The translations under genes were made by a program, and so were the position numbers. Below, in pieces: positions 5,017 through 24,331 of a stretch of 64,000 nucleotides of DNA; within the stretch, counting starts at the first letter, position 1, and every line of letters begins with the position of its first letter. Source of the DNA: Candidatus Omnitrophota bacterium (GTDB lineage: Bacteria > Omnitrophota > Omnitrophia > Omnitrophales > Aquincolibacteriaceae); the NCBI GenBank assembly GCA_003140935.1, contig PLLJ01000038.1, positions 6,858 to 70,857 on the forward strand, written 5' to 3'. The notes beneath the pieces are model-generated. The model was not told the origin of the DNA and searched no databases. It saw only the letters and a program-made list of their open reading frames with translations.

Positions 5017-5017
5017 C

Positions 5018-8290: not shown

Positions 8291-8539
8291 ATCCCTCGAA
8301 ATTATCTTCTAAGGAGTTCGATCTCTTCCAGTGATTGTTTTATAGGATACCGCTATTCTATGATTTCGTCAAAGACGCCTTCGGCAGATCCGCTCTGAGC
8401 CATTCAAATATCGAAAGACCTGACCTTGCGCAACACAAATCCCTATTTAAATACTTCCCAATGCCCCTTCCTCCAGATATACTTTTAGAGGATTCTTTTT
8501 TTACACGGCGTGAACTTTCAAAATCCAAGGAGGATTTTC

Positions 8540-9700
8540 ATGGTTGACGATTCTATCTACATTCTCGGGGAACATTCGAACGAGCCCAATGGAGAATCTT
8601 CCAGGCAGGCCGGTCCCGCTTCCAAAAAACCGGAAGATGTGCTCGGCATCTTGAGAAGCGCCCTAGAACGCAACACCTCGGATATCCATTTTCAGGTGGG
8701 AAGCCAGCCGATCTTCAGGATCGACGGCATTCTGACCCCTTTTAAGCAGGCAAAACCCGTCACGAGCGATTTCATGGCCACCTGCACCGATGTATTCCTC
8801 AGCAAAGACCAAAAAGAGTATCTTTTTGAGAACCGCCAAGTGGATTGTTCCGTAACACTCCCGAATTTCACTCATCGGTTCCGCATTAATTTTTTCTATC
8901 AACGGAACCATTTGAGCGGTGTTTTTCGCGCCAATCCCATCCTTCCGCCCACCATGGAGCAACTCGGGCTTCCTCCCCTCATGGAAAAACTGGTCGCTTT
9001 GCCTCATGGGCTCGTGCTGATCACCGGAGCCACGGGCTGCGGCAAGACCACGACCCTGGCGGCGATGGTCCATCATATGAATAATAACAGGAATGCCCAC
9101 ATCATCACGATGTCCGATCCCATTGAATATATCCACAAGAACAAATGCTGCGTGATCAGCCAACGCGAGATCGGAGACGATGCGATCTCTTTTGCAAGCG
9201 CTCTTCGTGTGGCGCTTCGGGAAGACCCGAACGTGCTCGTCGTCGAAGAGATCCGCGACCTGGAAAGCATCTCGATGGCTTTGACCGCGGCCGAAACAGG
9301 TCACCTGGTCTTCGCGACGCTTCACACCAACGATGCCGTCCAAGCCATCGACCGCCTCATTGACGTCTTCCCTCCCAATCAGCAGTCCCAAATAAGGGTC
9401 CAGCTGGCCATGACGCTTCAGGCGGTCGTCTCGCAGGTCCTGCTCAAAAGAAAGGGGAGCGCCGGACGCGTGGCGATCTTTGAAACGATGCCGATCACGG
9501 TCCCGGTCCGTAATCTGATACGCGATAACCAAACCATTCAGATCTACAATGTTATGGCGATGAATCGCGCTCAGGGAATGATCTTGCGTAACGACGCCCT
9601 AAGGGAAGCTGTCCAGAAAGGTCTTATCACGCAGGAAGACGCTGATACGCATCTTCTGGATAACACGATAGTAAAGCACGATCATTGGCGTCGGCCCTAA
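8540..9700 (+). CDS. pilT: Type IV pilus retraction ATPase PilT/PilU family
   Basis: Walker A GATGCGKTTTLAAM, PilT-type motifs (IITMSDPIEY, His-box HLVFATLHTNDA), and an AIRNLIRE-like VPVRNLIRDNQ. ATG at 8540 is preceded by AAGGAGG. Confidence 0.85.
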   Translation: MVDDSIYILGEHSNEPNGESSRQAGPASKKPEDVLGILRSALERNTSDIHFQVGSQPIFRIDGILTPFKQAKPVTSDFMATCTDVFLSKDQKEYLFENRQVDCSVTLPNFTHRFRINFFYQRNHLSGVFRANPILPPTMEQLGLPPLMEKLVALPHGLVLITGATGCGKTTTLAAMVHHMNNNRNAHIITMSDPIEYIHKNKCCVISQREIGDDAISFASALRVALREDPNVLVVEEIRDLESISMALTAAETGHLVFATLHTNDAVQAIDRLIDVFPPNQQSQIRVQLAMTLQAVVSQVLLKRKGSAGRVAIFETMPITVPVRNLIRDNQTIQIYNVMAMNRAQGMILRNDALREAVQKGLITQEDADTHLLDNTIVKHDHWRRP

Positions 9701-9792
9701 AGCGATCGTTCCGGACCCCGGCAAGATACTGACCGAAGTCGCGCTTGGGTCTTTGAAAGTCCCGTGCTCCTGCCCGCCGGTCGGCCTATGCC

Positions 9793-10158
9793 TTATCCTT
9801 TTGCGTTCGATCCTTGAGGGTATGGGATCACCTCGTTCCGGAGCAAGGCATTTTCCTGGGCAAGATTCTTCACCTGGTCTGTCAGATTCGATATCTTGAT
9901 CGAGAGCTGAACCGCGATCATCATGAGAAAGATGATCGCCCCGATGAACAAAGTGGTCGTGGGGAGACCCGCGCCGATCAGACCGGTGAGGGCCACGAGC
10001 CATTCGTAGCGTATCACAAGAATGAACATCAAGAGGCTCGTTGCCAGCCAGAGGACGGAGTATTCCTCGCGGAGTTTTCGCCTCCTCACCAAATTCAGGG
10101 TATACACAAAAACGAAACAGCAGATCACTAAAGCGGATATTTTTTGGCTTTCAAGCAT
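9793..10158 (-). CDS. DUF2304-like small membrane protein (commonly paired with a GT2 glycosyltransferase)
   Basis: 121 aa with two or three TM helices and a C-terminal coiled tail (DQVKNLAQENALLRNEV). Its position directly downstream of the GT2 gene at 10210-10950 matches the known GT2+DUF2304 pairing. Confidence 0.5.
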   Translation of the reverse strand: MLESQKISALVICCFVFVYTLNLVRRRKLREEYSVLWLATSLLMFILVIRYEWLVALTGLIGAGLPTTTLFIGAIIFLMMIAVQLSIKISNLTDQVKNLAQENALLRNEVIPYPQGSNAKG

Positions 10159-10209
10159 GGTTCCCCCGTTTCTTCATAGGTTGACACCGCCGCACGATCG
10201 CAGGGCATC

Positions 10210-10950
10210 TCATTTGTTTTTCCCCTTGGCCCTCATGAGCGTCACGCCAATGGACAGCAGCATCTTGAACATATAGTAGACCGGCTTCAACCCGCCGTGC
10301 ATGGATTTTCCATCGCGGTTCTCAACCATCCGGACCGGGACCTCGATCATGCGAAAACCCGCGCGATGGAGCGTGATCAGCATATCCGCGTCCGGATAGT
10401 CGACCGGAAAAATGTCCGTAGAAAAAAAACGTATGACGTCACGGTTGAACGCTTGATATCCCGAGGTCGTATCCGTGATGAACTTGCCCGTGACCAGAAA
10501 TACGATCCCGCGGAAAAGCGCCATGCCCATCCTGCGCGCGAACGGTGGCCGGTAGCTCTGCCCTAAAAAACGCGAGCCGATCGCAAAGTCGGCCGTTCCC
10601 GCGATCACCGGAGCTAAAAGCGCCGGGATGCAGGACGGGTCGTGCTGGCCGTCGGCATCGAGTTGAACAAGATAGTCGTAATGGTGGGCAAGAGCGTACT
10701 TGTAACCGGTTTGGATCGCAACGCCGTATCCCATGTTAAACGGGTGCGTTACGACGATAGCGCCGGACATGCGGGAGACGTTTGAAGTGTCGTCCTTGGA
10801 GCCGTCATTGACGACAAGAACGGGCATTTCAGGCGCGGCACGCCTGATACTCTCCATAAGCCCTTGGATCCGCACAGCCTCATTGTAGGCCGGGATAAGC
10901 ACCAGTGAACGCGGACTCTTTGTGCCGTTCATCGCCTGATCCTTTCTCAT
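10210..10950 (-). CDS. GT2 family glycosyltransferase (polyprenyl-phosphate sugar transferase-like, Dpm1/GtrB type)
   Basis: LVLIPAYNE..VNDGSKDDT..QLDADGQHDP (DxD) motifs typical of GT-A fold GT2 enzymes. Confidence 0.8.
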   Translation of the reverse strand: MRKDQAMNGTKSPRSLVLIPAYNEAVRIQGLMESIRRAAPEMPVLVVNDGSKDDTSNVSRMSGAIVVTHPFNMGYGVAIQTGYKYALAHHYDYLVQLDADGQHDPSCIPALLAPVIAGTADFAIGSRFLGQSYRPPFARRMGMALFRGIVFLVTGKFITDTTSGYQAFNRDVIRFFSTDIFPVDYPDADMLITLHRAGFRMIEVPVRMVENRDGKSMHGGLKPVYYMFKMLLSIGVTLMRAKGKNK

Positions 10951-11025
10951 TATTTTTTTCCTGTGTGATGCACGTAAGGCATGAAAGCTAAAGCGTCCGG
11001 TGTTCCCGTCATGGGATGAAAAAAA

Positions 11026-11436
11026 TTATCCGCCCCGGGCACGAAAGAAGATCGCATGGATCAAACTCCACTTTCTACGGAGAAGCCCCCCGTCCAGGAT
11101 GCCTTGGGCCACATCGAACATCATATGCATGAGGCATCCGGCCGAGATCCAAAAGATGGCGCCGTGCATGAACAAGACGCCGGCGATATAGACCGCGATC
11201 ACCTCGACCGTATGCAAAACGCAAAGACAATAATAGTGGTCAGATTCTTTGGCTTCAAAAAAACGTATCGCCCGTCTGAACGATCTATCTTTGAATTTTA
11301 CGGCATACCATAAGTAATGGTCTACATCAATTAGCACGCTTCCGGCCAGCACTGAAATACCCGCCTGGGGCGATACGTACCAGCTTACCGCCGTCGCAGC
11401 CACAAGCCCGGTGAGAAGATGCTCTTTAAGGAACAT
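11026..11436 (-). CDS. Integral membrane protein, uncharacterized (LxDxDH motif)
   Basis: 136 aa with 4 predicted TM segments and an LIDVDHYLWY motif; sits inside the glycosyltransferase/radical SAM operon. Confidence 0.45.
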   Translation of the reverse strand: MFLKEHLLTGLVAATAVSWYVSPQAGISVLAGSVLIDVDHYLWYAVKFKDRSFRRAIRFFEAKESDHYYCLCVLHTVEVIAVYIAGVLFMHGAIFWISAGCLMHMMFDVAQGILDGGLLRRKWSLIHAIFFRARGG

Positions 11437-11553
11437 CGAGTACTTTTCTCCATTTTATTTTCCGCCACAATCCTTCAGGCGGATCCGTCCTCTGGCGGAT
11501 AGAGGTTAACGGTGCTCGCACCGCATACCCCTGATTTTAAATGTCATGCGGTG

Positions 11554-12564
11554 CTAGGATCTCGCTTGACCGGTTCCGGAATTCCCCGGATAACCCATGA
11601 AAAAACCCCGCACAAGACCCGCCGCGTAAAAAATATGCGTTCCGATCAAGATAGGCCCTACACGCAGGCCTGAGGCGGGATCCTTAGGCAAAGCCAGAAA
11701 ATAACCGGACAGCAGGGTGAACGGAATGTAGAGCCACACGAGAAAAGCCGGCCGCCACAGGATGCCCAGCAGGCTTGCGATGAATAATCCGGGAAGAAAA
11801 AAAAGAGCGATCACGTACGCCGGAGAAAAGAGGGTCCGGTGCTTCCGCATGATCCTGGCCCGGCCGATCCCGTAATGATACATATTCATGCACCAGGACG
11901 AAAACGACCGCCTCGCAGCATGCTCCACGAGGATCCCCGGAACAAAATACAATCCGTATCCTTTTTGGTCCAGGCGATAATTCATATCCGCATCTTCGCA
12001 CATATTTTCCAAGAGTTCATCGAATCCCCCGGCCGACTCCAGGGCGGCGCGTGAGTAGAGGGCATTCAGGCACGCGATACTTGCCACCCGGCGCCGCTCT
12101 CCAAAGATCTTTCCCTGTACGGAACCGAGGCTGCCGAGGAATGAATCAAGCGCAATGCCGAGAGCGGTCTGGAACGGGGTTTCCCCGGAAGGGGCTTTGT
12201 TGCCGCCGCCTACGCCGGCTAAACGGGGATCGCTTTTTTGGATCTCTTCGAAGGATGCCGAAAGCATTCCAAGCCAGTTCGGCGGCACGATGCAGTCCGA
12301 ATCCGTGAAGGCGATGGAGGGATGGAGGGCCTCGCGAAGGGCCACATTCCGGTTCGAGGCAATGGTCCTCTTCGGATTTTCGACGAGACGGACACGGCCT
12401 GCGAACCCGCGGACGATCTTTTGGGTATCATCCGTGGAGCCTCCGTCGACCACCAGGACCTCGGTCCTGCCGCCATGGGGCACCATCTCCAGGATCGATC
12501 TCAGACAGGCGCCGATATGTTCCGCGGCGTTATAGGTCACAATGCAAACCGATATATCCATCAA
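11554..12564 (-). CDS. GT2 family glycosyltransferase with C-terminal transmembrane anchor
   Basis: VCIVTYNAAEHI..VVDGGSTDDT..FTDSDCIV (DxD) GT-A motifs, with a C-terminal hydrophobic region (VIALFFLPGLFIASLLGILW...). Confidence 0.8.
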   Translation of the reverse strand: MMDISVCIVTYNAAEHIGACLRSILEMVPHGGRTEVLVVDGGSTDDTQKIVRGFAGRVRLVENPKRTIASNRNVALREALHPSIAFTDSDCIVPPNWLGMLSASFEEIQKSDPRLAGVGGGNKAPSGETPFQTALGIALDSFLGSLGSVQGKIFGERRRVASIACLNALYSRAALESAGGFDELLENMCEDADMNYRLDQKGYGLYFVPGILVEHAARRSFSSWCMNMYHYGIGRARIMRKHRTLFSPAYVIALFFLPGLFIASLLGILWRPAFLVWLYIPFTLLSGYFLALPKDPASGLRVGPILIGTHIFYAAGLVRGFFMGYPGNSGTGQARS

Positions 12565-12580
12565 GTGGTTTCTCCCGCCA

Positions 12581-14002
12581 TTACTCTGGAAGGACTTTAC
12601 GCTTCAAGACCTTTGCGATCTGATCGAACAAGGTCTTACGGAACGCTCCATCACTAAGAGCAAGGGCCCCTATTCTTAATGCCGTTTTCCAAAGTTTGCG
12701 TTTCCACGCATCCCGGATACGCGCCACGGCTTTCATCAGGTCCTCCGCGGTAAGCGTCTCCAGATGTAACGGATATTTTCCGGGCCAGACATGATAATAA
12801 TTAAACTCCTCAGGCGACTTTGCCAACACCTTCTCCTTCAAAGACTCATACAGCGGCGTTCCCGGCAACGGCGTGGTAAGCGTCACGGTGAGAACATCCG
12901 GATGCAGGCGGTCCACCATGCGGACGGTCGCCTCGATCTCCTGCCGGTCTTCATCCGGTTGTCCCGGTTGATCGCTCGCGGTACCGATCATGACCGAGCC
13001 CGTGGTAAGAAGTCCTGCTTTTTGCGCGGAACGGAATCCTGCTTCAATTTGGGAAACGGTCAACCCTTTTCCCAGGATCCCCAGGATCCGGTCCGAGGCG
13101 CTTTCCATCCCCATGCTCAGGCCCACGAATCCGCTCCGGCGCAGGGTGCGGCAAAGTTCCTCGTCGATAAGATCGGGACGGGTGAAGCACCAATAGGGCA
13201 TTTTCAGTCGAGCTTTTCTCAATGCGGCGCATAGTTTGATCACCCATTCCCTGTCTTCCGTGAAGATCTCGTCATGGAAAAGAAGTATGTAATTTCCGGG
13301 AAAACGTTTGCGCAACTGCGTCAGCTCAAGCAGAACGCGCTCGATGCTAAGACGCCGCGTGGATTTTTTCGCATAGATCAGCGGCGGCTGATTGAACTTA
13401 TCCTCATAGTTCAGTCCCCGCGAAGCCATGAAAACGGCGTTGTGGGTCGCGTCGATATACCGCCTGTATTCCACCAAATCCCAATCAGGCGGCGGGAGTC
13501 TTTCAACGCCCACCCGGGACGCCGGCCTGGAGTCCGGATTTTCCACGGTGGCGATCCCCGGCCGGGCCAAGATCGTCTTTCGCCTGACCATGTCACGGAA
13601 CATATCGGGGACCACTTCCTCAGGCTCCCCGATCACGCAGGCGTCAAATCCCATTTCCAACAATAACCGGGAAGGCTCCGTCGAGGCCTGGGGACCGAAC
13701 GCGATCGCCTGGAGCGAGGGACATTGGGACCGGAGCCGCCTGATCGCCTCCTGAGTTTCATTGCTGAACCGGATCTGCGTGTTGACGAGAACGATATCGG
13801 GTTTTTGGGAAAGCGCAAAATCCCATCGGCGCCAGTCGTCCTGCTTTTCCCACACATGGTCCACCAGAGAACACGTGTACCCCGCTTGTTTGAGGACAGC
13901 GCCCAAATACATAATGCCCATCGGCGCATCGAGGCCTTCCGGACGGTGCGAGCCGAAAGGCGGGTTCAGGAAAAGGATCTTCAAAGAAAGGCCCTCCACC
14001 AT
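12581..14002 (-). CDS. B12-binding-domain radical-SAM-like protein lacking the CxxxCxxC motif (degenerate class B rSAM paralog)
   Basis: The N-terminus (KILFLNPPFG...GIMYLGAVLKQAGYTCSLVD) matches the cobalamin-binding domain of class B radical SAM enzymes. The position that is TSRGCPFHCxFC in its four paralogs reads ASRGLNYEDKFNQPP, with no Cys triad. ATG at 14002; a TTG at 14068 is an alternative start. Confidence 0.65.
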   Translation of the reverse strand: MVEGLSLKILFLNPPFGSHRPEGLDAPMGIMYLGAVLKQAGYTCSLVDHVWEKQDDWRRWDFALSQKPDIVLVNTQIRFSNETQEAIRRLRSQCPSLQAIAFGPQASTEPSRLLLEMGFDACVIGEPEEVVPDMFRDMVRRKTILARPGIATVENPDSRPASRVGVERLPPPDWDLVEYRRYIDATHNAVFMASRGLNYEDKFNQPPLIYAKKSTRRLSIERVLLELTQLRKRFPGNYILLFHDEIFTEDREWVIKLCAALRKARLKMPYWCFTRPDLIDEELCRTLRRSGFVGLSMGMESASDRILGILGKGLTVSQIEAGFRSAQKAGLLTTGSVMIGTASDQPGQPDEDRQEIEATVRMVDRLHPDVLTVTLTTPLPGTPLYESLKEKVLAKSPEEFNYYHVWPGKYPLHLETLTAEDLMKAVARIRDAWKRKLWKTALRIGALALSDGAFRKTLFDQIAKVLKRKVLPE

Positions 14003-15042
14003 TGGCCGGGATTTAAAAGAAAATTCCGCGTCTGGAAATTGCTGTGCGTGCAGGCGCCGGCGGAACAAAGCCCCGTTTGCCTGGTTTTGCGCACGGCGGT
14101 GCTGTTCCAGAAAGCGGCAAAATCACCGTGCCATTTAAGAAGGTTGCCGATCACGGGGGTCATTTCGCACAAGCGTACGTCGCCGTTGGGTTCGATCACG
14201 GCGAATCCGTCGCCGATCTGACAAGGACGGGCCACCGCTCCGGTGCGTAAAAACTTGAGGAAGGAACGGTTGAGGTGCCGGTGCGCCCGGGCGGCAAGAC
14301 GGGCGGACACCCCCGGATAATGGCCGCCGGCCGCGTAATAACGTTGGGCATAATAATCCACCAGATCCAGGACCTTCTCCACCTCGTCAGGAGGCGGAAG
14401 TTCCAGGCTCTTGTCGGGAAAATCCCCCCTCAAGAGTCCCACATCGTGAAAATCAACGCCCAGTCCCTGGACATGCCGCAACAGTTCCGGGATCTCCCCC
14501 GCATTGTAATTGTTCAGAACGGTGCACACGTTCAAAGCCAACCGGGGATGCTTCGAACGGATCTGTTTGAGTGCTTCGAGTGCCGCCATCATCTTTTGAT
14601 AATTGCCGGGAACACCCCGGAGAAAGTCGTGTGTTTTCTCCGATCCGTCCAAAGACAAAACGATATTGAGCTGCGCCTCCGGACAAAGGTCAAGGATCCG
14701 GCGGGTGCTCTCCAAAAGGTCCTCCCCCGCGAGGCCGTTCGTGGGAATACCGATCTTGCGAACGCCGGAATGCCGGTAGAACTCCGCCACAAGTTCCGGC
14801 AGGTCTTTGCGCAAAAAAGGTTCGCCGCCCGAGAGATGCAGCCACAGAAGATGAGGCAACGAACGCGCGACCTCGGCATAAAAATCGAGCGGCAAGTCCG
14901 CGGACTCCGGACTTTCGATCTGTTCATGATAAAAACAAGTCCGGCACCGGGAGTTGCACCGGTAGGTGACGAAAACGATCATATAGAGCGGCAGGCGGCG
15001 CTCGCGCGAAGTCAGCTTCCACCGGAGGATATCGGTCAGCAT
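13981..15042 (-). CDS. Radical SAM enzyme with C-terminal SPASM/twitch-like Cys-rich domain
   Basis: VTYRCNSRCRTCFY (CxxxCxxC) near the N-terminus; the C-terminal region has additional Cys clusters (CQIGDG...CEMTP...CSAGACTHS). ATG at 15042 is preceded by AAGGGGA and overlaps the upstream GT2 stop by 7 nt. The ORF-track N-terminal extension to 15324 is not conserved-looking. Confidence 0.75.
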   Translation of the reverse strand: MLTDILRWKLTSRERRLPLYMIVFVTYRCNSRCRTCFYHEQIESPESADLPLDFYAEVARSLPHLLWLHLSGGEPFLRKDLPELVAEFYRHSGVRKIGIPTNGLAGEDLLESTRRILDLCPEAQLNIVLSLDGSEKTHDFLRGVPGNYQKMMAALEALKQIRSKHPRLALNVCTVLNNYNAGEIPELLRHVQGLGVDFHDVGLLRGDFPDKSLELPPPDEVEKVLDLVDYYAQRYYAAGGHYPGVSARLAARAHRHLNRSFLKFLRTGAVARPCQIGDGFAVIEPNGDVRLCEMTPVIGNLLKWHGDFAAFWNSTAVRKTRQTGLCSAGACTHSNFQTRNFLLNPGQWWRAFL

Positions 15043-15989
15043 CGGGGATCCCCTTGCGTGCGCGACCCGGCATCCTTGCCGAAGAGCCGCTGATAATCTC
15101 CGCAACCCGCTACGGTGCCAAGATACTCCCAAGTCCGTCCCATCAAGTGGAGGGGGCTCAGCCAAAGCACGGAGAGATCGCGGGGAAGATTGCGCAGTAC
15201 GGTGAAGGCGGTCGCCAAAAGGGCATAACAGGGCCAGAGCAAAGCCAGCAGGACCCGGCTGTTCGGGAACATCCAGGAATAAGGCGGCAAGGGCTTGTGC
15301 TTGAGCACCGTCTGAATGGTCCACCGGCCGTAATTGAAGCGCTGACGGAGAAAAGCGCCCAAGGTGGTACGCGGATGATCGTGCATCACGACCGCCCCCG
15401 GTTCAAAAAAGTTCTCATATCCGCCGCGGTGGATCCGGAACGCCAGATCGGAATCCTCACTCCCCCGGAGGCGGGGATCAAAACCTCCCACCGCGTTGAA
15501 TACGGCCCTGAAGAGGGCCATGTTGGCGGTGGAACCGAAGAGCGTGGGACCGGCGGGAGCTTCCGGCCCGATGGAATGCGCCCAGGCCTGGTGATCCAAA
15601 CGTTGCCAAAGATTGCTTGAGGCCGGAAGAGCGATAGAACCGCTGACGACTCCCCGGCGTTCGTGCTCCTGAAGTCTCAGAACCAATTTTTCCAACCAGT
15701 CTTTTTGAGGGACACAATCGGCATCCGTGAAAGCCAGGATCTGGGCATCGGATCCGGCAATGCCCCTGTTACGGGCCGCGGCCCGGCCGCGATTTTCCTG
15801 CTCCAGTAATTTCACTTCCGGAAATTCCCTGGCCGCTTCCGAAGTGTTATCGGTGGACCCATCGTTGATCACCACCGGCATGACGGCTCCTTGATACGTC
15901 TGGATGCGAAGAGCCCCCAGACAGGCCCTGAGCGTACCCGCACCGTTCAAAACGGGTATGATGACATTCACCGCCGGATGCTTCATCAT
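15036..15989 (-). CDS. GT2 family glycosyltransferase
   Basis: VNVIIPVLNGAGTL..VINDGSTDNT..FTDADCVP (DxD), with a C-terminal hydrophobic tail. The start ATGATGA overlaps the stop of the upstream B12-rSAM gene. Confidence 0.8.
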   Translation of the reverse strand: MMKHPAVNVIIPVLNGAGTLRACLGALRIQTYQGAVMPVVINDGSTDNTSEAAREFPEVKLLEQENRGRAAARNRGIAGSDAQILAFTDADCVPQKDWLEKLVLRLQEHERRGVVSGSIALPASSNLWQRLDHQAWAHSIGPEAPAGPTLFGSTANMALFRAVFNAVGGFDPRLRGSEDSDLAFRIHRGGYENFFEPGAVVMHDHPRTTLGAFLRQRFNYGRWTIQTVLKHKPLPPYSWMFPNSRVLLALLWPCYALLATAFTVLRNLPRDLSVLWLSPLHLMGRTWEYLGTVAGCGDYQRLFGKDAGSRTQGDPRC

Positions 15990-17539
15990 TTGCTGTTTTC
16001 TCCCGGTTGCAAAGAGGCCGGCCTCAAGGCGAATTGATTATACAATTTCTTCAATGCCAGCCGGCAAGTTTTCAAAGACCGGAAGGCCCGTAACAGTTTA
16101 CGCACGGCAGGCAGCCGGAAAAAAACTACGGGGTGCCAAAAGAGCAGAAGCCCGTACCATTGCCACATGGCTTTGTGCCGCCAACGGGCCAGATCCACCC
16201 CCGCGGGCATATCGATCATGGAAAACCGCATGGCACAGAGATAGTCTTCATATTGGGACGACCTCTGCCTGCGATCTTCCTGCTCCCGATAAGCGGGGTA
16301 AAGATCCGTTCCCGGATAAGGCGAACAGATAAAACAGAGCGGAAAGATCCCGGCGCGCGCCAACCGTCTTCCGAAGGTCAGGGTCCGGTCCAGTTCCTTC
16401 TCGGTTTCTCCCGGAAACCCCATCATCAGAAAGCAAGTCACCGAGAGACCCGCCTTGCGGATGATCGCTCCGGCGCGAAAAATGGATTCGAGATCCAGAC
16501 CCTTACGAATGACCTTGCTCAGGAATTCCTGGTCGCCGTGTTCGGCGGCCAAGGTGATCTCGTAACAACCGGCGCGTTTCATGGCATCGATCAAACGGGG
16601 CGTGATCCGGTCCGCCCGCAAACCATTGGGAGTGTTCCAGCGGATCTTGAGGCCTCGCCTGAGGATCTCCTCGCAGATGTTAAAAGCACGCTCTTCATCG
16701 TAAGTGAAATTGCTGTCCTCGATGGAAAAGGAACGGACCCCGTACTGACGGTAAAGAAATTCGATCTCGTCGACCACGCGGGTGGGAGACCGGCCGCGCC
16801 AGCGCCGTCCGTTCAGCCGGTGGGCGGCACAAAAGATACAATGAAAAGGGCATCCCCGGCTGGTGATGACCGGCACCGTCAGTTCGACTTTTTCCCCGCG
16901 CTGGATCACCGCCTTTTCCGCCATCCGGCGGTAAAGTGGAAGATCGAGAAGGTCGTAAGCGGGCATCGGCAGTGAGTCGATATCAAGTATCATCGCCGGC
17001 GGTCCGGAAGTACATATCATATTGTTTTCCTTCCAGTAGATCCCGGAGGGAACGTCAGGAGCTCCTTTGATCAGGTGTGAAAGAAGCGCGGTAAAAGTGT
17101 TCTCGCCTTCCCCGTGAATGACATAATCCACCGCGGGAATTGTGATACTCTCCTCGGGCGCGCAGGAAGGATGAACGCCGCCGAGCACGATCTTGGCATG
17201 GGGCAGGGCCTGCCGGGCCAGTGCCGCGCATTCTTGTGTGCCGCGGAAGATCCCGGTGAACATATTGCCGATGCCCACCACCCGGGCCCCGCTGGCGCGA
17301 AGTTTTTCCACGATGACTGGGTCTGAAAGACCTACGCGGTAAACACGGCGACCCGCGCGCGAAGTCCATTCCCGCTGTTCGTAACCCTCCGCCAAAACGT
17401 CCAGCATGGCAACCGAGTAACCGGACGCCCGGACCGCCGCAGCCACGGCCAACAGGCCGCCGGGCACCGGCAACCAAAGATCGTCCAAGTTGCCTTCGGC
17501 CATGTACCAGTGCGGGTTGACAAGGACAACATCAGGCAT
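15986..17539 (-). CDS. B12-binding radical SAM enzyme (class B rSAM)
   Basis: N-terminal cobalamin-binding domain (VVLVNPH...GYSVAMLD), TSRGCPFHCIFCAAH CxxxCxxC motif, and radical SAM core downstream. Confidence 0.85.
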   Translation of the reverse strand: MPDVVLVNPHWYMAEGNLDDLWLPVPGGLLAVAAAVRASGYSVAMLDVLAEGYEQREWTSRAGRRVYRVGLSDPVIVEKLRASGARVVGIGNMFTGIFRGTQECAALARQALPHAKIVLGGVHPSCAPEESITIPAVDYVIHGEGENTFTALLSHLIKGAPDVPSGIYWKENNMICTSGPPAMILDIDSLPMPAYDLLDLPLYRRMAEKAVIQRGEKVELTVPVITSRGCPFHCIFCAAHRLNGRRWRGRSPTRVVDEIEFLYRQYGVRSFSIEDSNFTYDEERAFNICEEILRRGLKIRWNTPNGLRADRITPRLIDAMKRAGCYEITLAAEHGDQEFLSKVIRKGLDLESIFRAGAIIRKAGLSVTCFLMMGFPGETEKELDRTLTFGRRLARAGIFPLCFICSPYPGTDLYPAYREQEDRRQRSSQYEDYLCAMRFSMIDMPAGVDLARWRHKAMWQWYGLLLFWHPVVFFRLPAVRKLLRAFRSLKTCRLALKKLYNQFALRPASLQPGENSK

Positions 17540-17553
17540 GGCGGATCACTCCG

Positions 17554-18990
17554 TTAATCCTTTGGCCGTTTTTCAAATAAAGACTGAAGAAGGAACAGGA
17601 CAATGAGATACGCGCCGCGGATCATGCCGAACAATGCGGCCGGGGAACGGACACAGAGCAGCTTCCGCCCGATATAACGGGGCCGGAAATAAAACCGCCA
17701 AAAAGCGCGCTTCTGGGCCGCCTGGAGTTCTTCGGGCGTCAATTCGCAAACACTGATCGCCGGGGCCAGCTTGGCATGCCCCAGATAACGGTCCCAGTGA
17801 CTTTCATCGATCAGCCCCTTCTTCATCAGGTCCTCAAAGATCTTGGACCCCGGCATCGGCACCAGCGCGCAAAAATTCGCATAATCCGAGTCCAGCTCCA
17901 GAGCCACGCGGAGCGTATCGTTCATCGTTTGACGCGTGTCCCCCGGATGGCCGAAGATGTAACTGCAGAGCGTGCTGATCCCGTATTTCCTGCACAGGCG
18001 GACCGCCTCACGGGCCTGGTCCAGGGTGATGCCTTTATCTATTTTTTTCAACATTTCCGGGTTCCCGGACTCAATGCCGAACGCCATCCCCGTGCAGTGC
18101 GCCCGCTTCATCGCCGAAACCGTTTCCTCGTCGAGGGTGTTGACGCGCGCGTGGCAATTCCAGCGCATGTTGAGCTTCAACTCACTGAAAAGAGCGCAGA
18201 ATTCCAGGATCCATTTTTTATGGACGGTGAACGTGTCATCCACGATCAGGACCTCGCTGTAACCTTCGCCTTCAAGAAGCCTCATTTCCTCGATCACGTT
18301 CTTCGGGGATCTTTGATTGAAATGACGCCCGTAGATCGATTTGGAGCAGAAAACACAACCGTAAGGACACCCGCGGCTGGTAAGCATGGCGGTGTTTTTC
18401 CCGGAAGTGGCGCGCCGGTTGACATTCATGCCGTATTTGGATGGATCGAAAAGATCGCGCTTGGGAAAAGGTATTTTGTCGATCTCCAGGATCGGGGGAC
18501 GCCTGGGATTGACATGGATCTTCCCGTCGCGGCGGTAAACAAGATTAAGGATACCCGACGGGTCCTTTTTTTCACGGAGCGCGATAAGGAGTTCACGGAA
18601 AGCCTCTTCTCCTTCCCCCACCACCCCATAATCGATGGAAGGTTCCGCAAGAGTGCTCTCGGGCAACGCCGAACAGTGGACGCCGCCCACCACAACGATC
18701 GCGTGAGGATGAATCCCTTTGACCACCCTCGCCATTTCCCACGCAGTCGATACGGTGGCGGTCATCACGCTGATCGCAACAATATCCGGGGCCTCGCGCG
18801 CGATGACCTCGCGATATTGCTCCGGCTTTAATTTCAGGGCATTATTATCCAATCCGGCCAATTCGATCCCCGGAATATCCTGAACGTACGCGCCAAGGTA
18901 GGACAGTCCCAAAGGGACCGATACCCCGCCCTTTTCGCTAAAAGAAGCCGCGAGCTCACTATCGTTGGGGCAGGCCAGCAGGACTTTCAT
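17554..18990 (-). CDS. B12-binding radical SAM enzyme (class B rSAM)
   Basis: KVLLACPN... B12-binding domain and TSRGCPYGCVFCSK motif. The ATG at 18990 overlaps the stop of the upstream paralog as ATGA. Confidence 0.85.
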   Translation of the reverse strand: MKVLLACPNDSELAASFSEKGGVSVPLGLSYLGAYVQDIPGIELAGLDNNALKLKPEQYREVIAREAPDIVAISVMTATVSTAWEMARVVKGIHPHAIVVVGGVHCSALPESTLAEPSIDYGVVGEGEEAFRELLIALREKKDPSGILNLVYRRDGKIHVNPRRPPILEIDKIPFPKRDLFDPSKYGMNVNRRATSGKNTAMLTSRGCPYGCVFCSKSIYGRHFNQRSPKNVIEEMRLLEGEGYSEVLIVDDTFTVHKKWILEFCALFSELKLNMRWNCHARVNTLDEETVSAMKRAHCTGMAFGIESGNPEMLKKIDKGITLDQAREAVRLCRKYGISTLCSYIFGHPGDTRQTMNDTLRVALELDSDYANFCALVPMPGSKIFEDLMKKGLIDESHWDRYLGHAKLAPAISVCELTPEELQAAQKRAFWRFYFRPRYIGRKLLCVRSPAALFGMIRGAYLIVLFLLQSLFEKRPKD

Positions 18991-20456
18991 GCGGAGGCCT
19001 TTCTCAACCAATGGTACATGTTCCATCCCGTCTGTAAGGTGCTCCGGAGCTGTCCGAAAGACCGGATATCGGTCAGGGTCCGTAACATGTTGGAAGGACG
19101 CAAATAAAAACGTCGCGTGGCCAAACGGACCAATGCCTCCATGCGGTCACGGGTCAAACGGCCCTCCACGCCGATCTCAAATGAGTCCTGGAAAGGCGAT
19201 CCTTTTTCACTGCCTTGCTTTGTTAACCGGCAATCCTCATATTTTCCGTTTTTAATATCGAAATAGAAAGGACTCCCCGGATACACGGTCATCACCGCCC
19301 AATTGACATAGTGCAACTTCAGCCGGTCGGCAAAATTCATGGTTTCTTTCACGGTCTCTTCCGTCTCGCCCGGGAGCCCGATCATGAAATAGCCGGTCAC
19401 CCGGATCCCGGCGCGTTTCGTTTCCCGGACCGCGGTTTCGATCTGTTCCCGGGTGACCCCCTTCTGCACGGTATTCCTCAAAGCCTCATTCCCCGATTCA
19501 ATGCCGTAACTGACCATCCAGCATCCGGCCTTTTTCATCAGGCCCAAAAGTTCCGCATCCACGAGATCGCACCGGGTCGTGCAGGACCAGATGAGGTCCA
19601 GATCCGCCGCGATCAGGCGCTCCATGATCTCCGCCGTCCTTTGACGATTCATCGTCAGGTCATCATCATAAAAATGGATCTCCCGCACGTGGTAACGGGT
19701 CACGAGTTCCCGGAGATCATCCACGACACGTTCCGAAGAGAATGCCCGGTAAGAATCCCCGAAGACACTTTTGGAACAATAGGCGCAATGAAAAGGACAG
19801 CCGCGCGAGGTGATCTCATTCATGTAGCGCCACCGCCGGCCATACGGCAGATGAGGACGATACGCATCGATCCGGAAGAGATCTCGGGCGGGACGCGGCA
19901 GACTTTCCAGATCGCGGATATGTTCACGCGGAGGCCCCAGGGTCACGATTTCGCCTTCCCGCCAGATCGTTCCCCGCAAACCTTTGGGTGTCTGGCCGGT
20001 ACGCAGATATTCTTCAAGAATTTCCTTCAATGTGATCTCACCTTCTCCGAAGACGGCGAGATCCGCCTCAGGGAATTCATAAAGGGTTTCTTGGGTCAAA
20101 GCCGAGACATGCGGACCACCGATCACCAAGAGCGTTTTCGGAAAAAGTGTGCGGGCCATAGTGACGGCTTGCCGGGCACCTTCCCGGTTAGGCGTTAACA
20201 CGCTCACTCCGGTCACCTGGGGCGGACGCAGTTCCGCAAAACGACGCTGTAACGCGTCAAGCGTATGGAGGCCTTCGGCCCAAGCATCCACGACCTGGAC
20301 AGAATAACCCGCCTCCAAGGCCACAGCAGCCAGGGACGCCAAGCCGAGAGGGATCATCGGATGAGGGTTCAATGAATAGGGATTGATAAGAAGTAAGTCC
20401 AAAATGGCTTCCTCAGGTTCCAAACATGGCGTATTTAAAAAATTTACGTCCCGCAT
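18987..20456 (-). CDS. B12-binding radical SAM enzyme (class B rSAM)
   Basis: LLLINPYS... B12-binding domain and TSRGCPFHCAYCSK motif. Confidence 0.85.
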   Translation of the reverse strand: MRDVNFLNTPCLEPEEAILDLLLINPYSLNPHPMIPLGLASLAAVALEAGYSVQVVDAWAEGLHTLDALQRRFAELRPPQVTGVSVLTPNREGARQAVTMARTLFPKTLLVIGGPHVSALTQETLYEFPEADLAVFGEGEITLKEILEEYLRTGQTPKGLRGTIWREGEIVTLGPPREHIRDLESLPRPARDLFRIDAYRPHLPYGRRWRYMNEITSRGCPFHCAYCSKSVFGDSYRAFSSERVVDDLRELVTRYHVREIHFYDDDLTMNRQRTAEIMERLIAADLDLIWSCTTRCDLVDAELLGLMKKAGCWMVSYGIESGNEALRNTVQKGVTREQIETAVRETKRAGIRVTGYFMIGLPGETEETVKETMNFADRLKLHYVNWAVMTVYPGSPFYFDIKNGKYEDCRLTKQGSEKGSPFQDSFEIGVEGRLTRDRMEALVRLATRRFYLRPSNMLRTLTDIRSFGQLRSTLQTGWNMYHWLRKASA

Positions 20457-21861
20457 GCCAGAACTTCACGGCCTCGCGGGGATCTTTCACGATCCTCCAA
20501 AGGGCGCCGGCCAGGTAGCCCGGCCGCAAATAGTAACGGACGACGATGCGGTGCATGGCTTTTTTCATGTCTTCGCCCGAAAGACCCGGATAATCCATCA
20601 TCACATTCTGCGCTCCCTCCGGGGTCAGGAATTGCGAGAAATCCTCGGTCTTTAGAAATTTATTCTCTTTAAGCCAGTCGTAAAATTCCGTACCGGGAAG
20701 CGGCAGGGCGATCGAGACCTGCATCGTCGCGGGCTTCAAGCGCAACGCCGCCCTGAAAGTCTCTTCGATCGTTCCGGGAGTTTCGCCCGGAAGACCGATG
20801 ATGAAATCGCCGTGCACCTGGATGCCGGCCTTGCGCGCGGCCCCGGCAAAATCCTCCATCTGCTTCAGGGTGATGCCTTTTTTGATCCGCTTCAGGATCT
20901 CCGGGCTCCCGGATTCGTACCCGGCCACCATCGCGCGGCAGCCCGCTTTTTTCATGAGCCGGAGAAGCCCGAGGTCGGTGATATTGGGCCGGACATTGGC
21001 GCACCAGTTGATCTTGTACCCTCCCGCGATCTTCCGCTCGCAGAATTCCCGGACACGCGGGAGGTCGAAGGTGAAAGTGTCGTCATCGATCATCAGTTCT
21101 TTGACGTAAGGCGCCCGGTCGCGGAAATAGTCCAGTTCGGCAAAAATACTGTCGAGACTGCGCTTGCGGTACTTCCGGCCCATCAGGGTCTGCGGCCACA
21201 GGCAGAAAACACATTGCGCGTAGCAGCCCCGTCCGAAATAGGTCTGGACCCACGGGTAAAGCAAATAATCCATGTGATAATGATAAATATTCAGATGTTT
21301 TTCGATGACCTGGATGGAAAAAGGCAGCTCATCGAGGTTCTCGATCGGGGGCGGCGGTTCATTGGCCGTAAATTTCCCGTCGCGAAGATACGCGAGACCC
21401 GCAAGCGATGAAGGATCGCCTCCCCGGTCCATCACGGCCGCCATATCACGCAGCACATAGTCGAATTCACGGCAGATCACGTAATCCGTCCCCGGTGAGC
21501 GGCGCAGGGAATCCTCGGGCAGGACGGAAACATGAGGTCCTGTGATCACGGTGGTCGCTTGCGGACACGCCCGCTTCAAGAGGTCCGTTATTTCCAGGTC
21601 GTTGACGATGCTTCCGGTCGCCGTGTAAACGACGATCATTTGGGGATCAAATCCCTTCACCTCGGCTAAAAGTTCCTCACGGGATTGCTTTTTGGCCGGG
21701 CTGTCGATCAGACGCGTCTCATGTCCGGCCTTGTCGAGCACTCCGGTCGCATAGATCAGCCAGATCGGCATCCACAGGGCCGTGCCTTTGCTGGAAGCTT
21801 GCCAACGGGCGCCGCGGCAAAACCGGTCCGTAAAGGGCGGATTGATCAGGCAAATTTTCAT
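20413..21861 (-). CDS. B12-binding radical SAM enzyme (class B rSAM), first gene of the operon
   Basis: KICLINPPF... B12-binding domain with a variant cluster motif FGRGCYAQCVFCLWP. ATG at 21861 with a GAGGTG RBS; a GTG at 21873 is an alternative start. Confidence 0.8.
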   Translation of the reverse strand: MKICLINPPFTDRFCRGARWQASSKGTALWMPIWLIYATGVLDKAGHETRLIDSPAKKQSREELLAEVKGFDPQMIVVYTATGSIVNDLEITDLLKRACPQATTVITGPHVSVLPEDSLRRSPGTDYVICREFDYVLRDMAAVMDRGGDPSSLAGLAYLRDGKFTANEPPPPIENLDELPFSIQVIEKHLNIYHYHMDYLLYPWVQTYFGRGCYAQCVFCLWPQTLMGRKYRKRSLDSIFAELDYFRDRAPYVKELMIDDDTFTFDLPRVREFCERKIAGGYKINWCANVRPNITDLGLLRLMKKAGCRAMVAGYESGSPEILKRIKKGITLKQMEDFAGAARKAGIQVHGDFIIGLPGETPGTIEETFRAALRLKPATMQVSIALPLPGTEFYDWLKENKFLKTEDFSQFLTPEGAQNVMMDYPGLSGEDMKKAMHRIVVRYYLRPGYLAGALWRIVKDPREAVKFWHAGRKFFKYAMFGT

Positions 21862-22193
21862 CTTGAATAGCACCTCAACTATGGGATCAAACCATGCCGG
21901 GCATCAACAGACTCGGACGCTCTTTCCCATTCGATCTTTCCCTTGGACACACCCCTCCTTCGCACTCGAAAGAGCCCGGAAGATAGGGCATTGAATGAGC
22001 TTCTCTGAAATTGTAATACATTTCCACGCAATCAAAAATCTTTCTTTTCGTTTCATGACTCTCTAGCGGAAAGTCACCGTGTGGGCCGGGACAGACGGGA
22101 AGAAGGGCCGTAGGGGTACCGGTCCTGAGAGGGAAAAGAAGGCGTGTGAGTCACGGGAGACACTCAAGGAAATTTGCCGGAAAGTGACGCGGA

Positions 22194-22598
22194 CTAACGT
22201 ATCTGAAGGACGTGTTCGATCTTGCCTCTGAGATTGGCCAGATCAAAAGGCTTCTCGATGAAACCGCTGATCCCCTCGAACTCGAAGAGGGGCCGCATCT
22301 TCACCCCCGCTCCGGTGATCACGATCACGGGAGTTTTTCTGATGCGGGTCTGTTTTTCAAGATCCCGGTGGCGATAAAAACGGACGTTGCGGAGATAAGT
22401 CAGTCCATCCTCGCCCTTGGGAATGAGAATATCAAGAAGCACACAATCGGGCTTTGCTTCCTCGGTCTTCCGGAAACCTTCCGCCCCATCGGTTGCGGTC
22501 AGGATCGTATAGCCCAAAGGCTCGAGCTTTTCTTTGATGATCTGGCAGACATCCTCTTCGTCATCGATGACCAGGATACATTTTTTATTCTCTGGCAT
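22194..22598 (-). CDS. Single-domain response regulator (CheY-like receiver)
   Basis: ILVIDDEEDV...DCVLLDILIP...PVIVITG...K receiver motifs. ATG at 22598 with a GAGG RBS; a TTG at 22640 is an alternative start. Confidence 0.7.
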   Translation of the reverse strand: MPENKKCILVIDDEEDVCQIIKEKLEPLGYTILTATDGAEGFRKTEEAKPDCVLLDILIPKGEDGLTYLRNVRFYRHRDLEKQTRIRKTPVIVITGAGVKMRPLFEFEGISGFIEKPFDLANLRGKIEHVLQIR

Positions 22599-22723
22599 TG
22601 CCGCCTCGCTCAAAGGTTTAAACGTCTTTACTATCGTCAAGAACGCCCGCGAACTGAACGAGCCCGGGCAATTCTATGACGCGCTCAGTGGGATATCAGA
22701 ATAATTCCCCAAAAAGCGCCTTT

Positions 22724-23230
22724 TTATTCCTTTTCACTCTTCGCATCCATTTGTTTTTCCAGTTCTTGCATTATTTCTTTCGTTAATGGCTCTTTCTGGT
22801 CATACCGCAACACTCCTTGGATATCCCCGTTCTTGTAAGCCATTTCGCCTTTCAATTCTCCGTTTTCGTAATACGCCTTAAAAGGCCCGTCCCGCTTTCC
22901 ATCCTTGTAAGATATCTCCGACCGCAATTTCCCGCTTTTGTAATATTCCTTAACGGTCCCCTCCTGCTTTCCGTCCTTATAAGGTGTCTCCGACTTCAAG
23001 GGCCCGCTTTCGTAATACTCCTTAACCGTCCACTCCGATGTCTTGTTCCCATAAATCTTCTCTGCAAATAATTGTCCGCTTTTATACTGCCACCTCACGG
23101 GCTTCCTGGCGGGTTCCTGAGCTTGTCCCGTCGCGGGGCCCTCCCCGTATCCCGCAGCATGAAAGAGGAGCACCGAAAAGACAACCCCTCCGATCAACCC
23201 GCCCATAAAAGTCCGCACTTTGATATTCAT
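22724..23230 (-). CDS. MORN-repeat variant protein (YwqK-like), membrane-anchored
   Basis: N-terminal TM helix followed by repeated ..KEYYESGPLKSETPYKDGKQEGTVKEYYKSGKLRSEISYKDGKRDGPFKAYYENGELKGE.. (YxxG.L...x.YKxGxxxG repeats). Confidence 0.65.
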   Translation of the reverse strand: MNIKVRTFMGGLIGGVVFSVLLFHAAGYGEGPATGQAQEPARKPVRWQYKSGQLFAEKIYGNKTSEWTVKEYYESGPLKSETPYKDGKQEGTVKEYYKSGKLRSEISYKDGKRDGPFKAYYENGELKGEMAYKNGDIQGVLRYDQKEPLTKEIMQELEKQMDAKSEKE

Positions 23231-23824: not shown

Positions 23825-24331
23825 TTAAAGAATGTTTTGATAGATCTCAAGATCCCGCTCTGAAAATAAAACGAAGATCACTTTTTCAAAAGCGTCCGGA
23901 TTTTCCTCCAAGAACTTCTTGACCGTTCCCACGGCGATGGCGGCGGCCTTCCGGATGGGAAACCTGTAGGCCCCGGTCGAAATGGAGGGGAACGCGACCG
24001 TTTTTAAGTGCTGGGTTTGGGCGCATGCTAAGGAATTCCTGTAACAAGCGACTAAAAGTTCTTCCTCTTGATACTTTCCCCCGTGCCAAACAGGCCCGAC
24101 GGTATGGATGATGGCGCTGACCGGCAGCTGATACCCCTTCGTGATCTTGGCTTGCCCCGTCTCGCAGCCTCCGAGACTCTTGCATTCTTCAAGCAGCTCC
24201 GGGCCGGCGGCCCGGTGAATCGCACCATCGACTCCCCCGCCCCCGAGCAGGGTCCGATTGGCCGCGTTCACGATCGCATCGCAGATAAGACGGGTAATAT
24301 CGCCTTGAATGAATTGGATCTCGGTTTTCAT
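23825..24331 (-). CDS. Macro domain protein (O-acetyl-ADP-ribose deacetylase-like, YmdB/MacroD type)
   Basis: [37 protein letters not shown] macro-domain signature. Confidence 0.85.

Follow-up and report, generated by a model that had tools for sequence, protein, structure and literature searches.

A conserved, undescribed Omnitrophota operon with an HpnJ-like radical SAM protein, a cysteine-less paralog and membrane-associated glycosyltransferases

A stretch of 64,000 nucleotides from Candidatus Omnitrophota bacterium (GenBank assembly GCA_003140935.1, contig PLLJ01000038.1, positions 6,858 to 70,857; hereafter the window) carries eleven head-to-tail open reading frames (ORFs) on its minus strand, between positions 9793 and 21873. 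Numbered g1 to g11 from the first gene of the operon, they encode four radical S-adenosylmethionine (SAM) proteins with a B12-binding domain and an intact cluster motif (g1-g4), a fifth paralog without the cysteines (g7), a further radical SAM protein (g6), three family 2 glycosyltransferases (GT2; g5, g8 and g10), a DUF2304 protein (g11) and a small membrane protein (g9). All were located where an earlier reading of the sequence (the original prediction) had placed them, and Pfam domains and motifs bore out the gene content it gave. The operon is real, conserved and undescribed. We propose, at a probability of roughly 45%, that it serves the radical remodelling of a lipid-anchored sugar, every chemical step of which we infer; contraction of the sugar ring in particular is held with lower confidence than remodelling as a whole. 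The enzyme superfamilies and the logic of a glycosyltransferase followed by a radical SAM enzyme (HpnI/HpnJ, PtmJ/PtmC) are already known. New here are a non-hopanoid, GT2-coupled clade of HpnJ-like proteins, an obligatory cluster-less paralog, and a modular battery of class B radical SAM proteins. None of the eleven proteins reaches any curated cutoff in an NCBIfam profile search, and literature searches found no description of such an operon, in keeping with the earlier statement that no described pathway fits.

The first gene, g1 (20413-21861, ATG start at 21861), encodes a cobalamin-domain radical SAM protein of 482 residues. Against the HpnJ model TIGR03471 it scores 429.4 bits, short of the cutoff of 577.6, and the next family, BchE, follows at 153.7 bits; the alignment to the HpnJ model runs end to end (residues 6-482 over model positions 2-467). 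The original prediction had listed hpn genes among the markers missing from the operon, which overlooks g1, HpnJ being by far its nearest family. On the same model, true HpnJ proteins reach 706-790 bits; they come from Trichlorobacter, Terriglobales, Nitrospirae and a deltaproteobacterial metagenome-assembled genome (MAG) and share 37-40% identity with g1. Non-hopanoid relatives mostly lie at 426-517 bits, and one, in locus L018 (loci are given by number), scores 613. In a neighbour-joining tree of 85 relatives and the paralogs of the window (100 bootstraps), the hopanoid HpnJ clade and the g1 group were each recovered in 99 replicates, g1 fell inside the hopanoid clade in 0/100, and the whole HpnJ-like family was set apart from g2, g3, g4 and g7 in 91. 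No HpnK-like ORF occurs in L001-L005, and neither an HpnK/YdjC family nor HpnH, HpnG or shc was found among the window ORFs scanned; matches to HpnI (g5 and g8, 23-28 bits versus a cutoff of 310) and to HpnH (50.8 versus 225) stay low. Because g1 lies below the HpnJ cutoff and outside the hopanoid clade, and still matches the model over its whole length, we regard it as HpnJ-like and not as HpnJ. By sequence, it belongs to a large sister group of HpnJ outside hopanoid biosynthesis, whose genes are coupled to GT2 genes across both prokaryotic domains. It is also the most constrained gene of the operon, with a dN/dS of 0.061 relative to its counterpart in L087, a syntenic Omnitrophota locus.

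Locus L018 belongs to a Pseudomonadales MAG, and its HpnJ-like protein (10001-11446) exceeds the curated HpnJ cutoff at 612.8 bits. No HpnK-like ORF was found in this 21-kb locus, and no hopanoid family among ten flanking ORFs scanned. As the protein passes the cutoff in a non-hopanoid setting, automatic 'HpnJ' annotation can over-call hopanoid side-chain chemistry.

The coupling of HpnJ-like genes to glycosyltransferases extends far beyond the window. A GT2 gene lies within 400 bp of the HpnJ-like gene in at least 27 of 45 non-hopanoid loci, some of them on short contigs; in nearly every case the two genes share a strand, and in many they overlap. Glycosyltransferases resembling g8 overlap or abut HpnJ-like genes in L004, L006, L007, L010, L011, L018, L023 and others; true HpnJ genes adjoin HpnK in 16 loci. 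In methanogen-type genomes, the HpnJ-like genes sit within surface-glycan clusters (Wzx flippase, GT4 glycosyltransferases, pyruvyl transferase, UDP-GlcNAc 2-epimerase), and one archaeal cluster has the order GT2, ATP-grasp, polysaccharide deacetylase, GT2, HpnJ-like, an arrangement that parallels HpnI/HpnK/HpnJ. Margulisiibacteriota locus L005 and Pseudomonadales L018 carry similar batteries of B12-domain radical SAM proteins, methyltransferases and GT2s, the latter together with a g6-like radical SAM gene and a nucleotide-sugar epimerase/dehydratase. In L023, from Woesebacteria of the candidate phyla radiation (CPR), the order is GT2, HpnJ-like, g6-like radical SAM, GT2. The recurrence of a GT2 followed by an HpnJ-like gene argues for action of the radical enzyme on the sugar that the GT2 has just attached.

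All four intact paralogs combine a B12-binding domain (PF02310, 60-81 bits) with a Radical_SAM domain (PF04055, 77-94 bits) and an intact CxxxCxxC motif (GCYAQCVFC, GCPFHCAYC, GCPYGCVFC and GCPFHCIFC in g1 to g4, respectively), the combination of class B enzymes, from which g7 departs in having lost the motif. On domain content, g1-g4 may use cobalamin and are candidates for it. Their best relative of solved structure, as for g7, is AprD4, an enzyme that carries the domain and is reported not to bind cobalamin; identity to solved enzymes of the class B fold is 14-21%. The five paralogs g1-g4 and g7 share 23-31% pairwise identity, which points to ancient divergence and not to recent duplication.

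The paralog g7 (12581-14002, start at 14002) has SRGLNYEDKFNQPP in place of CxxxCxxC, and both of its class B domains are weak in Pfam (34.5 and 38.2 bits). Among 5.8 billion proteins, about 34 clusters of g7 homologs lie at 50-93% identity, after which identity falls sharply to below 30%. CxxxCxxC is present in none of 35 close homologs (50-93% identity), and the pattern SRGxxxxDxFxxPxL is conserved in 33 of them, the remaining two (one a fragment) giving no scripted motif match; the next, distant matches mostly keep CxxxCxxC intact. A dN/dS of 0.157 relative to L087 indicates purifying selection, and the AlphaFold2 model (predicted local distance difference test 88.7, predicted template-modelling score 0.87) shows the full class B fold with only the former cluster loop disordered, its best fold match being AprD4 (template-modelling score 0.72-0.75). 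Decay into a pseudogene is ruled out by the dN/dS value, the conserved orthologs and the confident fold. A family that lacks the motif, is constrained and folds confidently is best read as a maintained, non-radical member of the class B fold. Wherever the contig reaches, g7 accompanies g1 and g8, and its sequence marks it as a rare, strictly conserved radical SAM pseudoenzyme within the invariant core; it may act as partner, substrate holder or cobalamin carrier.

The cluster proved to be conserved as a unit, as the original prediction required of it. The closest proteins belong to Candidatus Omnitrophota MAGs, and the closest relative, L087 (GCA_043821445.1), shares its gene order with the window, the proteins being 80-96% identical; the synteny takes in both flanks (VanZ and a receiver-domain gene upstream, a PilT-like ATPase and a spore-photoproduct-lyase-like radical SAM gene downstream). 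The synteny of relatives was drawn from protein-identity look-ups; in a scan of genome contigs the best match to the window reached 43%, and none was close. The cluster recurs in nine other loci, among them L001 and L087 (Omnitrophota), L086 (labelled Desulfuromonadaceae), L002 and L091 (Thermodesulfobacteriota), and L003, L090 and a contig of ERZ1426835, which bear no taxon label; the L091 contig ends early upstream. Such recurrence argues against a chance collection of genes. The core of g1, g7 and g8 is invariant, being present in all nine wherever the contig reaches, and a pair of the g10/g11 type occurs in eight of the nine (L001-L003, L005, L086, L087, L090 and the ERZ1426835 contig), L091 showing none. 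The paralogs g2-g4, by comparison, count as accessory: g4 is missing from L087, and only a single, distant paralog occurs in L002 and none in L003. Orthologs of g2 occur in L001, L086 and L087, with a 39% relative in L005. The pair g5 and g6, found in L086, L087, L090 and L003, behaves as a swappable module, its slot in L001, L002 and ERZ1426835 being filled by a different radical SAM gene and a class I SAM methyltransferase. This alternative module (L001, 15946-17758; L002, 13874-15731; L003, 12802-14600) encodes a radical SAM protein of about 333 residues that is unrelated to g6 and weakly matches MoaA, viperin and W-cofactor maturase; L003 carries both modules. All genes compared with L087 have dN/dS values of 0.06-0.20, including g7 and g9; g4, which L087 lacks, was left out.

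Locus L086 (GCA_028712075.1, 1-12407) keeps the gene order of the window with a mosaic of identities (g1 86%, g5 69%, g6 63%, g4 and g7 60%), which suggests either cross-phylum horizontal transfer or recombination of modules, or a mis-binned contig.

The glycosyltransferases g5 (15036-15989), g8 (11554-12564) and g10 (10210-10950) match PF00535 at 79-96 bits (95.7, 87.1 and 79.3, respectively), and best NCBIfam matches of the GT2s include EpsD and MftF. With 22.7 and 34.2 bits, g5 and g8 also exceed the gathering score (21.7) of GT21 (PF13506; ceramide glucosyltransferase and HpnI-like lipid glycosyltransferases), underneath stronger matches to related GT2 families; this hints at a lipid acceptor but does not assign them to GT21. 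They are predicted to be membrane-anchored through C-terminal transmembrane (TM) helices, at residues 246-264 in g5 and at 251-269 and 274-292 in g8. The third, g10, is predicted to be a polyprenyl-phosphate sugar synthase of the Dpm1/GtrB/GacI/PpgS type. Its best NCBIfam matches are PpgS (98.4 bits, cutoff 370), AglJ (75.8) and dolichyl-phosphate hexose transferase (67.6), ArnC (PRK10714) scoring 35.5 against 529, and no equivalog-level match fixes its sugar. It lies 52 nt from g11 (9793-10158), a DUF2304 protein (PF10066, 89.9 bits) with four TM segments, and the two genes thus show the GT2-next-to-DUF2304 arrangement of a polyprenyl-phosphate sugar synthase and its GacJ/Rv3632-type partner. 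The remaining small protein, g9 (11026-11436, 136 residues), is helical, carries conserved His and Asp residues, and is accessory and lineage-restricted. It has no significant Pfam match, its consistent matches to YdjM (PF04307) staying under the gathering score of 29 bits, and against solved structures its fold gives generic helical-bundle matches only; a hydrolase function, for instance in an HpnK-like or phosphodiesterase step, is speculation. Altogether, five of the eleven products (g3, g5, g8, g9 and g11) have TM helices, and the anchored GT2s and the DUF2304 partner agree with the action on a glyco-substrate at the membrane that had been predicted.

The accessory paralogs are less easily placed. 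Best NCBIfam matches of g2 (18987-20402, TTG start at 20402 with a GAGGA Shine-Dalgarno sequence) are HpnJ (182 bits) and BchE (170), those of g3 (17554-18990, start at 18990, with a C-terminal TM segment at residues 450-468) are HpnJ (194) and BchE (184), and that of g4 (15986-17539) is the Sden_1168 P-methyltransferase family (197 bits versus a cutoff of 575). The matches of g2-g4 to HpnJ or BchE are diffuse, at about 127-194 bits. Assignment of g1-g4 to a modelled class B family (BchE, HpnR, PhpK, ladderane, BzaD, methyl-coenzyme M reductase glutamine methylase, TsrM-type, KedN5, ApyD) was considered and rejected, all scores being far under cutoff. Across lipid-type and other radical SAM models the scores were 47.8 bits for Tes (cutoff 450), 82-136 for TIGR04072 (360), 96-184 for BchE (481), 61-93 for HpnR (650) and 56-155 for PhpK (600). 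None of the characterised subfamilies with a model takes in the paralogs, as had been supposed.

The SPASM-type radical SAM protein of the original prediction is g6 (13981-15042, start at 15042), and the description holds only in part. The Radical_SAM domain is present (PF04055, 49.6 bits; motif CNSRCRTC), whereas SPASM (PF13186) scores 20.6 bits against a cutoff of 21.5, the match of the L086 ortholog being marked 'weak'. Four conserved C-terminal cysteines (C274, C292, C326/329 and C331), which fit a one-cluster twitch-like domain, argue for a twitch/SPASM-like rather than a full SPASM domain, where seven cysteines would hold two auxiliary clusters. Both g6 (353 residues) and its orthologs are 353-354 residues long without an N-terminal extension; a longer ORF adds 94 codons that overlap g5 out of frame and is called in no relative. 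The closest solved relative is the sugar-acting BlsE (38.9 bits), and relatives at 29-31% identity stand beside GT2 and HpnJ-like genes in L018 and L023.

The model proposed here builds on the GT2 and DUF2304 architecture of g10/g11, on the TM helices and GT21 scores of g5 and g8, and on the literature on HpnJ, PtmC and Cds. A glycosyltransferase step followed by radical SAM conversion of sugar to cyclopentitol has been proposed for HpnI/K/J, PtmJ/PtmC and Cds, in which HpnJ, PtmC and Cds would each rearrange a hexose or hexosamine, once it has been attached, to a five-membered carbocycle (PMC9092360; PMC13459092), and the cyclopentitol of pactamycin is further C-methylated by radical SAM enzymes (PMC9092360). 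By analogy, g10 and g11 would load a sugar onto polyprenyl phosphate in the manner of GacI/GacJ or PpgS/Rv3632, and g8 (here also g5), held at the membrane by its C-terminal helices, would glycosylate a membrane-bound acceptor. The product of g8 would then be the substrate of g1, whose 5'-deoxyadenosyl radical would take a hydrogen from the sugar, after which the pyranose could rearrange to a five-membered, carbocyclic cyclitol, the outcome suggested for HpnJ, PtmC and Cds; alternatively, g1 could C-methylate the sugar, as proposed for MoeK5, with which HpnJ groups in a published sequence-similarity network (PMC9204698). As a non-radical partner, g7 might hold the substrate, bind cobalamin or scaffold, and g2-g4 and g6 might add optional tailoring, for instance further C-methylation or oxidation/deoxygenation of the sugar. 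The finished unit would enter the envelope as a glycolipid head group or glycan side chain. The sugar, the acceptor and the role given to g7 are presumptive. Both closest solved relatives, AprD4 for g1-g4 and g7 and BlsE for g6, act on sugars, which speaks for the remodelling of a lipid-anchored sugar.

Several points weigh against this proposal. HpnJ itself has never been reconstituted (PMC13459092). In the window g1 is not adjacent to a GT2 gene, so that the coupling is at the level of the operon, although g1 abuts g8 in L002. The operon contains no deacetylase, flippase or GT-C transferase, and only L002 has a weakly LA_3751-like putative glycosyltransferase; the acceptor and the export route are therefore unseen. 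Class B enzymes also modify lipid chains (Grs, Hgm, HpnP/R), and L086 encodes a CMAS-like class I methyltransferase, a hint of acyl-chain chemistry. The original prediction, which had envisaged the tailoring of a lipid, glycolipid or glycan by a battery of class B enzymes, is partly supported as a whole: a glyco-substrate at the membrane stands, whereas the context favours the sugar from the adjacent GT2 over lipid tails. As HpnJ is a non-methylase with a presumed role in sugar-ring contraction, reading the whole set as methylases is not the most cautious assumption.

In a doubtful alternative, the B12-domain and twitch/SPASM-like radical SAM proteins would act on the alkyl chains of ether lipids or membrane-spanning lipids by methylation, cyclisation or bridging, in the manner of archaeal GrsA/B, Hgm/Gmm or Hbs/Gms, and the GT2s would merely add head groups. 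Clusters of B12-domain and SPASM/twitch radical SAM genes are a signature of the tailoring of glycerol dialkyl glycerol tetraethers (GDGTs), and Hbs homologs have been reported in Omnitrophota genomes encoding Mss (bioRxiv 10.1101/2023.10.20.563219; PMC13459092). The C-terminal TM helix of g3, the L086 methyltransferase and weak matches of g6 and the alternative radical SAM protein to the AhbD and Tes models point the same way. However, the published description of Hbs/Gms is of an AhbD-like SPASM radical SAM protein of at least 400 residues with an N-terminal COG4001 domain of about 100 residues and seven to eight C-terminal cysteines. The length of g6, the missing COG4001 domain and the cysteine count rule it out as a GDGT bridge synthase (Hbs), and its AhbD score is 62 bits against a cutoff of 500. 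The Tes score is likewise far from its cutoff, and no tes, mss or ether-lipid genes were found among the window ORFs scanned. Moreover, the candidate chain modifiers g2-g4 are dispensable, while the invariant part of the cluster combines the HpnJ-like protein, GT2 and polyprenyl-phosphate sugar synthase, and the trio of GT2, HpnJ-like and g6-like genes also occurs in the Woesebacteria locus and in archaeal glycan clusters. Such clusters of archaea and Firmicutes, in which g1 relatives are found in conventional glycan settings, lend weight instead to an ordinary surface polysaccharide of the exopolysaccharide or O-antigen kind, whose radical SAM proteins would add C-methyl or deoxy groups without ring rearrangement or a special role of g7. 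A published sequence-similarity network in which HpnJ co-clusters with the C-methylases Fom3 and MoeK5 (PMC9204698) and the GT2 matches to EpsD and MftF fit this account, which overlaps the remodelling model heavily and differs only in the chemistry of g1 and the final acceptor. We consider it unlikely, as the operon lacks an initiating phosphoglycosyl transferase, Wzx/Wzy or ABC exporter and chain-length regulator, and the obligatory conservation of g7 would be left unexplained.

A soluble specialised metabolite, such as a pactamycin-type aminocyclitol or aminoglycoside-like antibiotic, or a ribosomally synthesised and post-translationally modified peptide (RiPP), is very improbable. A glycosyltransferase, an HpnJ/PtmC-like radical SAM enzyme and several radical SAM C-methylases do make up the pactamycin recipe (PMC9092360), the best structural relatives include enzymes of apramycin (AprD4) and blasticidin S (BlsE) biosynthesis, and several NCBIfam matches are to RiPP radical SAM families, well under cutoff. 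Against this, no aminotransferase, polyketide synthase or nonribosomal peptide synthetase (PKS/NRPS), carrier protein, nucleotide-sugar, transporter or resistance gene accompanies the cluster, nearly half of the products (five of eleven) have TM helices, the cluster lies among housekeeping genes in several lineages, and the pair of polyprenyl-phosphate sugar synthase and DUF2304 protein, kept in eight of the nine other loci, is an envelope-glycan device. A RiPP was also rejected on its own account: no plausible precursor-peptide ORF was found within the operon or next to it, and the 320 nt ahead of g1 hold only short, featureless ORFs. The absence of a peptide precursor and of PKS/NRPS genes in or beside the operon had been correctly noted before.

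As to the layout of the locus, inspection of the sequence and the gene calls of relatives served to refine the starts of g1, g2, g3, g6 and g7; the longer ORFs of the mechanical listing run into upstream genes. Junctions mostly overlap or are shorter than 60 nt, and the overlaps ATGA (g2/g3), ATGATGA (g4/g5) and ATGCTGA (g5/g6), which the original prediction had pointed out, can be read directly in the sequence; the widest gap is that between g8 and g9 (117 nt). One edge of the operon is marked by a convergent PilT-like gene (8510-9700, plus strand), and the other by a 320-nt gap followed by a stand-alone response-regulator receiver gene (22194-22640, minus strand; PF00072, 66.7 bits). The latter holds the same position upstream of g1 in L001 and L087 and is absent from L002, L003, L086 and L090; as its conservation is limited to the Omnitrophota relatives, it may be a regulator and does not belong to the core. 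A scan for promoters and terminators was uninformative, with counts within about 1-2 standard deviations of shuffled sequence. An Rfam scan of the window returned tRNAs only, without any cobalamin riboswitch that reached the gathering score, and the window ORFs scanned included no cobalamin family.

In four of ten loci the cluster adjoins type IV pilus or type II secretion genes (PilT-like ATPase, prepilins, type II secretion F/E proteins, secretin), namely in the window at 8510-9700 (plus strand), in L087 at 14368-15534, in L086 at 13263-21404 and in L091 at 8939-12249. This may be coincidence, or the product may decorate a pilus or a secretion-related surface structure. Large proteins without Pfam domains are encoded beside the cluster in L002 (6784-8409, minus strand), L003 (7966-9267) and the ERZ1426835 contig (10904-12367); one of them matches the LA_3751/LA_3752 putative glycosyltransferase family (44.5 bits), and one directly follows the GT2-DUF2304 pair. 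Any of them could supply the missing transferase step, in which the polyprenyl-phosphate sugar would be used; the window has no equivalent.

Elsewhere in the window, a spore-photoproduct-lyase-like radical SAM gene (7133-8290, plus strand; PF20903, 106.5 bits) lies outside the operon, at the same position as in L087. Five tRNA genes (Gly-GCC, Leu-TAG, Lys-CTT, Arg-TCG, Phe-GAA) occur at 3121-6138, and between them lie one M48 peptidase gene and one ROK-family gene. Flanking genes on the minus strand, at 22724-23230, 28141-28836, 23825-24331 and 32650-33375, include two for MORN-repeat proteins, one for a Macro-domain protein and one for a glycosyltransferase with a DXD motif (Gly_transf_sug), without evident link to the operon. 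A single ORF of 4763 residues with RHS repeats and a Big_13 Ig-like domain occupies 38675-52966 (minus strand), and L001 and L089 have giant ORFs of 5121 and 4652+ residues near their HpnJ-like genes; such sizes agree with the 'very long proteins' that a recent study describes in Omnitrophota (bioRxiv 10.64898/2026.06.07.730766).

In its most far-reaching form, which we regard as rather unlikely, the remodelling of a lipid-anchored sugar would yield a new class of envelope glycoconjugate, in which the sugar becomes a carbocyclic, possibly multiply C-methylated cyclitol and the dead paralog g7 is needed as partner of the HpnJ-like enzyme. If so, it would be a bacterial counterpart of calditol and of the bacteriohopanetetrol (BHT) cyclitol ether outside hopanoid or tetraether producers, and the pairs of GT2 and HpnJ-like genes in archaeal, CPR and Firmicute glycan clusters would make radical ring remodelling a general, overlooked step in surface-glycan synthesis. 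A cyclitol-type or C-methylated lipid-linked sugar would represent new head-group chemistry of the bacterial envelope and possibly provide acid-stable biomarkers, and would bear on the use of 'HpnJ' annotations as evidence of hopanoid side-chain chemistry. Cobalamin-domain radical SAM enzymes are among the largest pools of unassigned chemistry, and the five-gene core of g1, g7, g8, g10 and g11 is compact and suited to heterologous reconstitution. The operon is also relevant to the surface biology of Omnitrophota, a poorly known and largely uncultured phylum.

Among known systems, HpnI/HpnJ of hopanoid biosynthesis is alike in that a GT2-type transferase adds a hexosamine to a membrane lipid and a cobalamin-domain radical SAM enzyme then acts on the sugar; it differs in that no HpnK stands beside g1, and the present operon has four extra class B paralogs and a pair for polyprenyl-phosphate sugar synthesis. 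The pactamycin genes PtmJ (glycosyltransferase), PtmG, PtmC (radical SAM) and PtmH follow a similar logic, with glycosylation of a carrier-bound acceptor, cyclopentitol formation and C-methylation by radical SAM enzymes (PMC9092360). That pathway, however, is soluble and tethered to an acyl carrier protein, with PKS, aminotransferase and oxidoreductase genes of which none is found here, where the proteins are membrane-anchored. Cds of Sulfolobus is a functional analogy only: it turns a lipid-attached hexose into a five-membered carbocycle, from hexose-GDGT to calditol-GDGT, which is the kind of reaction proposed for g1 (PMC13459092; PMC9092360). Unlike the present system, it comes from archaea, has tetraether lipids as its substrates and is associated with acidophily.

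For g10 and g11, the likeness is to a Dpm1/GtrB-type GT2 beside a DUF2304 protein in Mycobacterium (PpgS/Rv3632) and in Streptococcus (GacI/GacJ); the GT-C transferase and the flippase to which the product normally passes are not encoded in the present operon. Such a pair is discussed for the attachment of the streptococcal GlcNAc side chain (bioRxiv 10.1101/180810). The class B paralogs g1-g4 and g7 share with AprD4 (apramycin 1,2-diol dehydratase, which acts on an aminoglycoside sugar), TsrM, TokK, CysS, MgmA and OxsB a Rossmann domain, a partial TIM barrel and C-terminal helices. All of these solved proteins keep the [4Fe-4S] site, unlike g7, which retains the fold without any of the cluster cysteines.

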